Shown in pieces: positions 53,087-57,355 of a stretch of 64,000 nt of DNA (its first letter is position 1; every line of letters begins with the position of its first letter). Under the pieces are notes generated by a model that made no database searches, was not told the DNA's origin, and worked only from the letters and a program-made list of their open reading frames with translations. The DNA comes from a virus. A program made the position numbers and the translations under genes. Where the stretch lies: the IMG/VR virus record IMGVR_UViG_3300050821_003907, positions 64,001 through 128,000 of that record; one strand, 5' to 3'.

Positions 53087-53410
53087 CTAGATTGCTACTA
53101 GCGTGGGTACGCCGTACTCATCACTGAGGTCAATCCAGTAGCCGCGAAGGCAGCCGATGATAATTCCGGCCTGCTCAGGATGTGCACGCTGCACGTCCTT
53201 CAGCCACGCCTCACTCATGTGCCAGCGCTGCGCGACCACCTAGAGGATGAGCTGGAAAAAGCTGCTGACGAAGGACTCCGTTGGCTGGACGACAGCTTTC
53301 GCCACGTAGAATTCAATCTCGTCCTTGGTATACCAGTAAGGCCCAACGTACTTCCGGTAGACGCAGTTCTTGTCAGCAGCCTTGAATTCCTGGGGCCTGA
53401 TGCGTGCCAT
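53087..53410 (-). CDS. Two in-frame small ORFs (53240-53410 and 53087-53239) separated by a single TAG
   Basis: TGATG-coupled start at 53410; MARIRPQ...FQLIL, TAG, then VVAQRW...LVAI, TAG. Confidence 0.4.
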
Positions 53411-53778
53411 CAGGCGATGTCTCTGTACGTCTTGCCTGTGATGACCTGGCGAATTGAGCTGCGTGACGGCATGTTCGGCTGCTTGGAAATCTGCCAGTCG
53501 CTCAGCCCTTGAGAATTCAGCCGCTTGATTTCCCGCACGGTATCATCACTCATCGCACGGTCCTTGCGCGCCTTAATTGGCTTGCTGTGACTAATGCCAT
53601 TAAGCACGTTGTAGATTGTAGACGGGTTCACGTCATACTCCCTGGCGAGTGCCGTTACCCCGGCAGCTTGTCGCAGGACCTTAATCATTTCGGCGTCATT
53701 TGTAGTAAGCTTACGGCTCATGTCACGAAACCCTTCCTCATCCGCAATAGTTAATTCCCTGTGGTAGGCTTGCGCCAT
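53410..53778 (-). CDS. Protein with two helix-turn-helix modules
   Basis: GVTALAREYDVNPSTIYNVLNG and GLSDWQISKQPNMPSRSSIRQVITG. Confidence 0.7.
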   Translation of the reverse strand: MAQAYHRELTIADEEGFRDMSRKLTTNDAEMIKVLRQAAGVTALAREYDVNPSTIYNVLNGISHSKPIKARKDRAMSDDTVREIKRLNSQGLSDWQISKQPNMPSRSSIRQVITGKTYRDIA

Positions 53779-54305
53779 GGATGTAATGCACTTGGTTCAG
53801 AACCCTGTGATGGACCCCATTGACCTTTGTGAATACCCCGTGGAAGTGTCGCAGAACATAGGACTCAGGCTTGCGGCTGCTGAAGGACTTACTGAAGCAG
53901 AGGCACTAGACGCTTTCATTGAAGCCCTTCCTGACACCGTGACCACCGATAAAGGTGACATCCGCCTTATGTTCGTGGTGAGCTAGGAGCGACATGAGCG
54001 ATACTCTTGACGACAATCCCGGTGGCGCAACTAAGTTCACGCTGCCGTACATAGAAAAGGTGCTAGGGAAGTTCCCGTTCATCGGAGTCAGTGAGCGTGA
54101 CCAGATTCTGGCTAACCTCAAGGATGGTAAGCAAGTGCTCATGCACCTGGAGGGACGTCCTGACAAGGAATGCTTCCTGATGATTGTCAAGGTAGGTGAC
54201 GGGCTTTACGGCGCTAAGACGATGCCTCATGACATCGGGCAAGCACTACTTGCAGCCAACGAAATCCTGTTTTCCCTAGAGCAACCTGATGAGCCTGAAG
54301 AGTAA
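53777..54305 (+). other. Two small ORFs (53777-53986, 53994-54305)
   Basis: Divergent from the HTH gene; TAGGAG stop/SD overlap between them. Confidence 0.55.
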
Positions 54306-54500
54306 TTCACAGGGACGCGTATCCACTTTCCGTAGAGCCTCACATGCCAGCAACGATTCTCAACTCAGTCAGTTCATCCTGCTCAGCAAAGCAGGTGGCA
54401 CCGAACTAACGAGGAAAACCTTCACCGATACTTTCCCTACCCGAAGCAAGTGGCTGTTGTAAGCGGCGAAAGGAGGAAGACCGCCCGCGCCCCTGTGAAT
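54305..54500 (-). ncRNA. Candidate ~196-nt structured non-coding RNA with anti-SD loop
   Basis: 15-bp terminal stem plus several internal stems whose G-U pairs all favour the - strand; lies between convergent genes. Confidence 0.6.
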
Positions 54501-54514
54501 ATTAACCCAGCTTG

Positions 54515-57355
54515 TTAGCTGGAAGCATCGCGACGGTAAACTAGCGTCGGCTTATGGACTTCAAAAAACTTCTCGATGGGACGAGCTCCGACTACAGCGG
54601 GCACGGAACTGTAGGTAACCGAGCAAGACGTGAAGCACTCAATGACAAATCCATCACAACTAGCCCACGCCTTGCGCACGTACCAGTCAATGCCTCCGCT
54701 GCCGCGCCAGACATCGCCTACCTTGACCTCAGGCTGGACTTTATCCATCATGGCGTAAGGCAGAAACGCTTGGCGAGGCGCAGTTTCGGAATGGGAAACA
54801 GTAACCCAGGCACCGGTACTGCCAGGCATGTCAATCTTAGTGCGAAACTCCTTGATGACGACCTCGTCACCTTCGCTGAATGCGTCTGTCATGATTGCTC
54901 CCCTTCTAGCATTACTTCCCCATCCGCGCCAAATCGCTTGACCAGGACCCTCTCGCCACCGTACAACGCGAAGATGACCTGGCTTATTCCGGCGTTCTTG
55001 GCTAGCATCTGCGCGTCCCTGAGGGCCTGCGTGACGCCCTTGAGCGTGCCGGGGTATATCGTGACGCTCGGCCATGGACAGGGCTTCTCCGTGCCGCTAC
55101 GACGCATGTATCGGTCAGGCTTAGACTCCGACACGCGCCAGCTCGTCCGGTACTAGCTCTCCGTCACGGAAGCGCCAGTTCTGCCCGTAGTAATTGGCGT
55201 ACTTCTCAGGACCCTCATTATCCAGCATCTCTTCAATAGCTAGCATCACCTCTAGGGCCTCTTCAACGATGAAGCCCATGACCGATACCTGCCACAACTC
55301 ATGCTCTAGGCCGCCAGCACGGTTCCAGCGCTTGCTGCTGGAATGGATGAACACCGTTGGACCGCCCCAGATATTGTTGGATATGTCTGCCGCGTAATCG
55401 TAGGAAACTTCTGCCGTGCGCACGTTAATAGCTTGCAGGTGCCCAGTGCATGAGTCCCATAGGCTGGAAAGAACAGGTGCACGGAACATGCGTTCAGTCA
55501 TTAAAACGGATATCCAATCGGGAATACCTTCTTGAAAAGCTCTCGTGCTTCGGTAATAGGCTCAGGCGCGTGAGTGTGAGGATTGAATGTACGGTCTGAA
55601 CGAATCAGATTGTCGGCTACACACATGTCGTATGCCTTAGCTAGTTCGTGCAATCGCCTACGGATAAGTGCGGCATCATTGCCTGCGCTACGGTTACCGT
55701 GTGGCTTTACGCGAATAATGATGTAGCACTCTTCGTTAGTCACGGTAGCTCCTTAATGCCCAATGCCGCTACCCAGCCATCAAACTCCCTGTGCCACGAG
55801 GGTGCGTTGGACCGGGAGCTGAACTCAGCACTGATGTCAATATAGTCTTCTCTTGCCTGCGCAAGCAATCTCGCAAGAGCTTCTTTGTCAACGCTAACGC
55901 GACTCATTTGCACTCCTCAGTCGCTTGGTAAGTTCTTCTTGCATGTACTCGTAGCCTCGTGGCAGTGGACGCGTCAGGCTGTGTTCCTTTAGCATGTGCA
56001 CGCACAGCTCTACTTCACAGTCAGCATCACTTTGAAAACGTCCGCACTGCCAGTCCCAGTCACACTGCTGTATACCGTTATCATCTTCACTAAGGTCACA
56101 GTAGGCTTCATACGCGGTGTAAGGCTCAACAGGCATGATTCTCCTAATTACAGTACTTGTAGCCCGACACTTCCACCAGGAAACCGCCTTGGACAGCGCG
56201 CTCCATCAGGTAGTCCACCGTGCCAGCTTCTGAATACTCGTCCAGGCCAGCAGGGATTCGCAGGTTACGGCTAGTGGTGCTGTTGACAATGCCCGGCGCG
56301 GAGAACGCTACGTTGATTGTCTTGACGTTCTCAGTGAGAGACAACGGCTCATCACATCCGCAATTCTGACAGGTGAAACCCTCAGGTGGCAGGTAAAAGC
56401 ACTTATGGCACGATGCCTTGACTTCCCACTCACGTACATCAAAGGCGCTAGCGATGGCTGCCAGCGGCGGCGGGTAGCGCGTGCCCTTTTCCATGCGCAG
56501 GATGTGGCTCTTGTGCACGCCACCTAGCAGCATTCCTACAGCCGCCAGTGACATCTTGTTCTCAGTGCGCAGACGCCGCAGGGAACGACGTGCCAGCTCT
56601 TGGTCTTGCTGAAGCTTATCCATAGTGGTCCTTATTACATGCCGTGAGTGAGTCCGTCTGCGGTTCTTACAGTAAGCTTCAAACCCGACGGCATCGTTTT
56701 TAGCTCTATGAGGGTAAAGTCTCCGTAATCCATCACGAGGTCTAGGTAGGCTAGTAGACTGCTGACTTTTTGTCGAATTTCCAGGTCGTAACTGTACCAG
56801 TCATACGCCACGAATTCCGTGTCAGGCAAGTCATCGTCACCATGCACGGGACTGAAAAGTACCGCAGCGCCTTGAGGTGCATTATGCGAGATGCCGTTAT
56901 CGTCTACACCCCCAACATGGAACCCGAACTGGTATTTCACCAGCTCTATCATTCGAACTTCTCCACTCCGAGGAACAACGGGCCTAGCTCAATGTGAAGC
57001 CAGTACACCGAACTGTTAAAGCTGATGTAGAGGTGGACCCAGTCGCGCCAGCTTCTGTTACGAACAGGACTCGTAGCCAGAGGTGACCAGTACGCGTAAG
57101 AGTGCCCTTTAGTGAGGACAATTTCAGGTTTCACGTTAGCGCTTTCCTTCCCTCAGTGCCCAGCACCGCTATCTCCACGAGCCGCATGGTGTAGACGTGC
57201 TCCAGGGCACCGCGCATAGTGCGCTTCCAGTAATCACTCACGCCGTACTGGTTGCACTCAGGGTTAACGCAGAACCACTCCCAGCGCATTCCCGGCTTGT
57301 ACCGTTCACCCCGGCGCTTGCGCACATGACAGTGGTGCTCGTGGTCCCAGTGCAT
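54515..57355 (-). other. Run of small hypothetical ORFs (54515-54892, 54889-55134, 55121-55501, 55501-55743, 55894-56136, 56635-56952, 56949-57134, 57131-57355 and others)
   Basis: Dense coupled ORFs typical of a phage early/accessory region. Confidence 0.6.
56144..56623 (-). CDS. XRE-like HTH protein with zinc ribbon
   Basis: LRRLRTENKMSLAAVGMLLGGVHKSHILRMEKG + CHKC...CQNC. Confidence 0.7.
   Translation of the reverse strand: MDKLQQDQELARRSLRRLRTENKMSLAAVGMLLGGVHKSHILRMEKGTRYPPPLAAIASAFDVREWEVKASCHKCFYLPPEGFTCQNCGCDEPLSLTENVKTINVAFSAPGIVNSTTSRNLRIPAGLDEYSEAGTVDYLMERAVQGGFLVEVSGYKYCN

Follow-up and report, generated by a model that had tools for sequence, protein, structure and literature searches.

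A conserved minus-strand RNA structure with an exposed anti-Shine-Dalgarno-like loop at the arm junction of an uncultured soil phage

The masking of ribosome-binding sites (RBSs) by structured RNAs is a type of mechanism that is already known in bacteria. In Staphylococcus aureus and other Firmicutes, the multi-hairpin RNAIII and the RsaE/RoxS-type small RNAs (sRNAs) use C-rich loops to pair with Shine-Dalgarno (SD) regions. Phages have their own devices that act at this site. Phages P1 and P7 make the c4 RNA, which matures from a longer transcript, and phage T4 possesses the endoribonuclease RegB, which cuts the SD sequence (GGAG) of the phage's own early mRNAs and thereby switches off early translation. 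To our knowledge, phage regulatory RNAs have barely been charted beyond the prophages of enterobacteria, and all that we know of from the large actinobacteriophages are abundant transcripts that have found no explanation. In actinobacteria, the B11/6C RNA exposes unpaired C-rich loops that pair with G-rich RBSs and repress translation without the aid of Hfq (PMC10470900). The loops of the phage-encoded c4 RNA pair around the RBS of the ant mRNA and block its translation (PMC12197685). RNA-seq studies of the Cluster A mycobacteriophages L5, D29 and StarStuff have revealed abundant and stable intergenic RNAs whose function is unexplained (PMC5712189).

The RNA element described here is carried by an uncultured soil phage whose host, judged by matches of the DNA polymerase, is probably an actinobacterium. 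The IMG/VR virus record of this phage comprises 181,160 bp and is judged to be 98% complete; the window, i.e., the whole stretch of 64,000 nucleotides that was analysed, corresponds to bases 64001-128000 of this record, and all positions given below refer to it unless stated otherwise. Since the phage DNA polymerase matches only enzymes of actinobacteriophages (those of Mycobacterium, Microbacterium, Arthrobacter, Streptomyces and others), the host is likely to be an actinobacterium, and since all of these matches fall below 30% identity, the phage is without a close cultured relative. In a crude ORF map of the record, most genes before about 118 kb point rightward, and a near-unbroken leftward arm of about 58 kb runs from about 177 kb to 118.5 kb. 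The element (positions 54305-54500, minus strand) is located at the far (3') end of the leftward arm, where the two arms meet, and occupies the whole of a 209-nt gap between two convergent genes. On one side, a plus-strand gene (53994-54305) encodes a protein of 103 amino acids; it can be regarded as a real gene because its last codons differ from those of a related phage by synonymous changes only. On the other side, upstream of the element with respect to its own strand, lies the last gene of the leftward arm (54515-54892, minus strand; 125 amino acids). Neither protein belongs to a known family in Pfam or PHROG, and no RNA-binding family was found in these two databases among the neighbouring proteins.

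Read from the minus strand, the element folds into a four-way arrangement of helices (P1, P2, P3 and P4) with a minimum free energy of -81.4 kcal/mol (z -4.04), a value that none of 200 shuffled sequences attained. The plus strand reaches -54.3 kcal/mol (z -1.10), and 27 of 200 shuffles folded as well as this. The difference between the strands arises because 13 of the 68 pairs of the consensus structure are G-U pairs. The minus-strand fold is also retained when the element is embedded in a context of 261 nt. An initial annotation, made by reading the sequence, had proposed a structured minus-strand RNA of about 196 nt at this position, had named several helices, and had pointed to four G-U pairs as evidence for the strand. 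The folding energies and the conservation of the element in a related phage (see below) support the proposed RNA, and every one of the named helices is present on the minus strand; the assignment of the strand is strengthened as well, while the number of G-U pairs has to be corrected from four to the 13 of the consensus structure.

The closing stem P1 (AUUCACAGGGGCGCG/CGCGUCCCUGUGAAU) is formed by the 5' strand at 54486-54500 and the 3' strand at 54305-54319 (both minus strand), the last base of which overlaps the stop codon of the convergent plus-strand gene. It is GC-rich and very stable, comprises 15 bp with a single G-U pair that is replaced by A-U in the related phage, and might represent a processing stalk. 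Stacked directly on P1 is the P2 hairpin (54465-54485, minus strand; GGCGG-UCUUCCUCCUU-UCGCC), which is identical in both phages and whose loop covers positions 54470-54480; the register of P2 with a 14-nt loop that was given in the initial annotation is equally possible as that with an 11-nt loop. P3 is a long arm (54339-54463, minus strand) built around an interrupted helix of 24 bp (54402-54426/54349-54376), with a side hairpin at 54436-54450 and a variable apical hairpin at 54378-54395; it holds the segments GUUAGUUC/GAACUGAC around CCUGC(UU)/(GA)GCAGG. P4 (54322-54336, minus strand; UCUAC-GGAAA-GUGGA) is a short hairpin with the loop GGAAA, and it is invariant between the two phages.

The 11-nt loop of P2, UCUUCCUCCUU, is the part of the element that recalls the RNAs mentioned at the outset. 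It is predicted to be open, with unpaired probabilities between 0.83 and 1.00 along the loop and between 0.93 and 1.00 in its CCUCCUU core, and it is identical in the two phages, so that the anti-SD-like loop of the initial annotation is indeed on display. On the minus strand, CCUCCUUUC at 54468-54476 equals nine consecutive nucleotides of the mycobacterial 16S rRNA 3' tail ACCUCCUUUCU, an 11-nt segment that is freed when the toxin MazF-mt11 cuts at C^ACCU (PMC12274833). This 9-mer occurs a single time in the 181-kb genome, and in 181 kb of sequence chance alone would produce about one 9-nt match to the 16S tail; hence, what makes the match suggestive is not that it is rare but that it sits in an apical loop that is open and invariant. 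As had also been stated in the initial annotation, there is no usable plus-strand start codon after the GGAGG, since the first one, a GTG, lies 18 nt downstream and opens a frame of seven codons. Two smaller features of the fold can be mentioned here. Along 4 nt, the UUCC in the 5' part of the anti-SD loop is complementary to the GGAA of the P4 loop (GGAAA), and each of the two hairpins is a neighbour of the closing stem; an interaction between these loops may form and would compete with pairing to an mRNA. The pentamer CACCU, the MazF-mt11 site that precedes the anti-SD sequence in 16S rRNA, is present at 54393-54397 (minus strand) at the base of the apical hairpin of P3 and is kept in the relative; its chance of occurrence in an RNA of this size is about one in five.

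One related phage is available for comparison, a contig of 163.5 kb (IMGVR_UViG_3300021404_000005, which equals Ga0210389_10000017), in which the element is located between the same two genes (L002:3312-3505, minus strand) and adopts the same fold (z -4.96). When both copies were used to build a covariance model, it detected the element exactly once in each genome, with scores of 236 and 235 bits. The two elements share about 91-95% of their positions (90.8% when indels are penalised), which ranks them among the highest 7% of all 196-nt windows in a 16-kb region with a local mean identity of 82.1% (sd 6.9). Two other nearby intergenic gaps reach a similar identity (0.91-0.93), and the protein encoded by the upstream gene is 69% identical between the two phages. 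By itself, the level of identity of the element is thus not exceptional; the telling point is the placement of the differences, most of which are found in the bulges and loops of P3. With respect to the consensus structure, 3 of 136 paired columns differ, versus 16 of 61 unpaired columns (Fisher test, 7e-7), and when differences are counted as events, three of 13 fall into paired columns (binomial test, 9e-4). As a control for circularity, the same test was repeated on a fold computed from the window sequence without the relative, and 7 of 142 paired versus 13 of 54 unpaired columns were then found to differ (P 2.4e-4).

The three changes in paired columns of the consensus structure (G-U to A-U, C-G to U-G, and U-G to C-G) all preserve the pair. 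With regard to covariation across related phages, which the initial annotation had listed among possible checks, the two sequence variants show these three one-sided changes and no double (compensatory) change, so that covariation in the classical sense is absent between them. The indels that separate the two copies measure 4, 1, 1 and 2 nt and thereby exclude a coding reading of the element on either strand. The ORFs at 54289-54462 (plus strand) and 54227-54343 (minus strand) are ruled out as genes by these frame-breaking indels. Folding better than shuffled sequences, strand specificity, the non-coding nature of the segment and substitutions that spare pairs are the generic hallmarks of conserved structured non-coding RNAs, and the element displays each of them. 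From this comparison of sequences, we have little doubt that an RNA structure on the minus strand has been kept by selection, and we consider it reasonably probable that it accumulates as a discrete RNA.

The element does not correspond to any catalogued RNA that we could detect. An Rfam scan of the kind recommended in the initial annotation yielded no family that matched the element at the gathering score in the whole window, and in the segment 54150-54650 at E values up to 10 there were two chance-level matches, which lie outside of the fold or are irrelevant to it. ARAGORN detected no tRNA or tmRNA gene in the window. Searches of the 181-kb record gave no Ro/TROVE protein, although control genomes gave matches; membership in the Y RNA/YrlA group was rejected on the grounds of this missing partner and the missing Rfam match. 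6S and Ms1 RNAs were likewise discarded, as there is no Rfam match and the element forms a four-way junction and not a rod with an open-promoter-like bubble. Judged by these scans, the RNA family is at present uncatalogued and has two members so far. Further homologues were sought by protein-guided scans of viral, metagenome and genome contigs with both flanking proteins and with the protein alignment A4, and by three DNA patterns across viral contigs, and both approaches led to the one relative only. The covariance model reported no further copy in a 39-kb fragment from a less close relative or in any of the pattern matches; those in two contigs of similar size (L014 and L020) are AT-rich, unrelated and due to chance. 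Among cultured phages, a distant-mode blastn search with the element and a tblastn search with the neighbouring protein, each against 50,697 phage records, gave no match.

How, then, does the element compare with its closest described counterparts? Like B11/6C (RF01066), it is a structured RNA with an unpaired pyrimidine loop, and the host phylum is probably the same. Unlike B11, which has about 90 nt and two loops with six or more C residues each, the phage RNA has about 196 nt and one mixed C/U loop, in which runs of C are never longer than two; a match to RF01066 was found neither at the gathering score nor at E values up to 10. It differs from RNAIII and RsaE, the C-rich loops of which are several, carry UCCC and are found in Firmicutes, in that it has a single C/U loop whose pairing with SD sequences is predicted; no Rfam match connects it with them. 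With c4 it shares the property of being a phage-encoded structured RNA, and c4 sets a precedent in phages for the blocking of an RBS. This RNA is, however, only about 77 nt long and acts on specific targets in one operon, whereas the loop of the element is a generic anti-SD sequence, and membership in this family, too, finds no support in Rfam. In its logic, the element would resemble RegB of T4, as both are phage devices that inactivate the phage's own SD sequences, but RegB is a protein nuclease and the RNA would mask these sequences instead of cutting them. The stable RNAs of Cluster A phages map either to the beginning of the early arm (Pleft) or to the 63-64 gap, in contrast to the position of the element at the distal end of an arm, and blastn against phage records revealed no similarity to them. 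A phage-borne mimic of the 16S tail was not found in the published literature that we searched.

We suggest that the element encodes a stable non-coding RNA with an extensive fold, which would be read from the minus strand at the 3' end of the leftward arm. The RNA might be released from the long leftward transcript or be made from a weak promoter just upstream, and the 15 bp of P1 would define its ends or act as a processing stalk. Stalks of this kind are known from ribosomal RNA precursors, in which they are cut by RNase III. The loop UCUUCCUCCUU of P2 would be the working part of the molecule: by copying the anti-SD tail of actinobacterial 16S rRNA, it could pair with purine-rich SD sequences, compete with the 30S subunit and lower SD-led translation. 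The SD-led genes of the phage's own leftward arm would be included, and a likely role would be the timing or damping of this arm. We favor such an RNA of the B11/6C or RNAIII type, which masks ribosome-binding sites through its P2 loop, tentatively and as a model; it should be noted that we infer the transcript ends, the processing, the SD pairing and the effect on translation. Several properties of the element count against SD masking, namely the single pyrimidine-rich loop where B11/6C and RNAIII use several, the want of a standout target, a 9-mer at chance frequency, and two variants without double changes. Two sequence variants and an uncultured host set the limits of the case. As it stands, the RNA offers a concrete lead on how translation initiation in infected cells might be controlled by RNA, in an actinobacterial setting in which leadered and leaderless translation coexist and in which several toxins attack the very same anti-SD tail.

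Which messages such an RNA could affect depends on how the phage genes are translated. SD duplexes of -6 kcal/mol or stronger precede the longest-ORF start of 43% of 179 phage ORFs, versus 11% of random positions, and at -8 kcal/mol the values are 27% and 3%, respectively. The 96 genes of the leftward arm have stronger SD sequences than the 98 rightward ones (mean -8.5 versus -7.4 kcal/mol; Mann-Whitney 0.005) and a stronger predicted pairing with the loop (-9.4 versus -7.8 kcal/mol; Mann-Whitney 1.5e-4), a comparison that splits the genome at about 118.5 kb, relies on crude gene calls with the start picked by the best SD sequence, and serves as a lead only. When the genome was searched for extended complementarity to the 14-nt loop, only ordinary RBSs emerged, scattered and with two to three mismatches, and none stood out as a target. 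The initial annotation had envisioned a global shut-off of the host, in which SD-led host mRNAs are sequestered and leaderless phage mRNAs escape. The anti-SD loop on which this idea was built is real and exposed, and leaderless mRNAs make up about 14-25% of those in actinobacteria (PMC12274833), but the notion of leaderless phage messages does not hold for this phage. Its genes are enriched in SD sequences, with the strongest pairing on the very arm that carries the RNA, and they are packed in long, tight operons, the internal genes of which cannot be leaderless. Since the phage genes are SD-led, a general competitor for SD sequences would hit phage messages at least as hard as those of the host. 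The genes of the leftward arm would, by their sequence, likely be targets and not escapees, and a selective shut-off of the host is highly unlikely.

Three further readings deserve attention alongside the masking of RBSs, and one of them concerns the architecture of the molecule. A multi-helix junction with invariant loops is more elaborate than base-pairing sRNAs usually are, and the element might serve as a protein-binding or scaffold RNA, in the way in which 6S or Ms1 RNA engages RNA polymerase, Y RNA engages Ro, or the pRNA of phi29 functions; the P2 loop would then provide a protein or tertiary contact. We regard this possibility as somewhat doubtful, given that Rfam scans at E values up to 10 returned neither 6S nor Ms1 nor Y RNA, nor another family, that the genome is devoid of a Ro/TROVE protein, and that the neighbouring genes encode no member of an RNA-binding family. 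The exact fill of a convergent gap at the arm junction by an element with a GC-rich and very stable closing stem can also be viewed from the perspective of transcription: a cis-acting 3'-end element could end or protect the leftward transcript and perhaps block the rightward one, be it as a barrier to 3'-exonucleases or as a factor-dependent or bidirectional terminator. A stable RNA would then be a by-product and the anti-SD match a coincidence, in keeping with a 9-mer that lies within genome-wide chance, and in D29, too, the late transcript stops in intergenic sequence where the arms meet (PMC5712189). With its 196 nt and four helices, however, the element far exceeds the size of any terminator, P1 lacks a following U-run, and the loops, P2 and P4 are invariant in sequence while the bulges vary. 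The upstream gene already has a small terminator-like hairpin of its own, and the plus strand, folding no better than shuffled sequences, would make a poor bidirectional element; an explanation purely in cis thus appears unlikely to us.

The third reading takes the resemblance of the P2 loop to the 16S rRNA literally. [quoted passage not shown] The loop offers the single-stranded sites UUCCU of MazF-mt6 and UCCUU of MazF-mt3 (PMC5408214), the mycobacterial enzymes MazF-mt11, RelE1 and MazF6 are known to cut at or beside the anti-SD sequence (PMC12274833, PMC12620021), and the pseudo-ToxI of phage PhiTE illustrates RNA mimicry that is directed against a toxin RNase (PMC3475682). If true, this would represent an RNA-based anti-toxin strategy against ribosome-targeting toxins that protects the ribosomes during infection. 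Pentamers of this kind are present in any C/U-rich loop, though, the loop lacks the MazF-mt11 site CACCU, having UU where this site has CA, and a single copy per RNA makes for a weak sponge, so that we consider a decoy function improbable. An element that acts at the level of DNA, such as an origin, a recombination site or a cruciform, can be imagined from the perfect-looking 15-bp inverted repeat that flanks the gap. This idea is scarcely credible: 13 G-U pairs turn into A-C mismatches on the other strand, the z values are asymmetric, the internal helices need G-U pairs too, and repeats or iterons were not seen.

Returning to the element as an RNA gene, we note that its sequence is present in two soil RNA libraries, each from a different study, which as assemblies attest to its presence only; assembled contigs give neither the strand nor the ends nor the level of a transcript, and RNA libraries can carry DNA. 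One library (run X4) yielded two contigs that do not extend beyond the element; the first matches the window exactly at 54316-54486, and the second has the variant of the relative at 54316-54483. That no contigs cover the flanks in the 2-kb stretch was not counted as a sign of a discrete transcript, and the shared contig ends (54316; 54486/54483) do not define the ends of the RNA, as they come from one study and from k-mers that are common to both variants. In the other library (run X2), nearly the whole 2-kb stretch is covered at a flat, low depth by contigs that cross both ends of the element, a pattern that cannot separate read-through from DNA carry-over. Together, these contigs provide a weak hint that an RNA with a length of about 170 nt or more is expressed. 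The X4 contigs hold 1 nt of the 5' strand of P1 and 4 nt of its 3' strand. This near-absence of P1 may fit equally a processing stalk, a transcription start just downstream of the -10-like hexamer described below, or a technical loss of ends.

The 5' boundary of the element carries two features that could bear on its transcription. The hexamer TAATAT at 54499-54504 (minus strand), upstream of P1 or overlapping it, resembles a -10 region; it reads TAAGAT in the relative, both versions fit TANNNT, and from the sequence it is possible that they are part of the RNA's own promoter, although a scan with the sigma-70 consensus made no call at this site. Just upstream, the small hairpin UCCAGCUAACAAGCUGGG (54506-54523, minus strand), which is terminator-like according to a consensus scan, is followed by UUAAUAUU, a stretch that also reads as the -10-like TAATAT (TAAGAT in the relative). 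The loop of the hairpin includes the UAA stop codon of the 125-aa gene, and the hairpin is identical in the relative despite a 6-nt indel in the preceding coding sequence; it is a possible terminator of this gene that would separate the mRNA from the RNA gene. An intrinsic (bidirectional) terminator was rejected as an identity for the element as a whole: the scan called only the hairpin at 54523-54506, there is no U-run after P1, and the plus strand is not structured beyond chance.

Some observations concern the neighbourhood of the element. Homologues of the 125-aa upstream protein share 55-69% identity and were used for the protein alignment A4; three of them (P0004, P0005 and P0006; 55-62% identity) are encoded on Logan/ENA contigs of 12-52 kb. 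A minus-strand ORF of 186 amino acids that can be drawn within 54515-55156 is probably just this 125-aa gene with its start at 54892, since the arginine-rich N-terminal part of the longer ORF overlaps an 81-aa gene (54889-55134), and a plus-strand ORF of 200 amino acids (54554-55156) resembles a shadow ORF on the opposite strand. On the other side of the element, the region 53410-53986 encodes a 122-aa protein on the minus strand with helix-turn-helix (HTH) motifs of the resolvase type (PF02796, E 2.6e-5). Its gene is arranged back to back with the two small genes on the plus strand that run up to the RNA, which gives the arm junction the appearance of a regulatory cassette.
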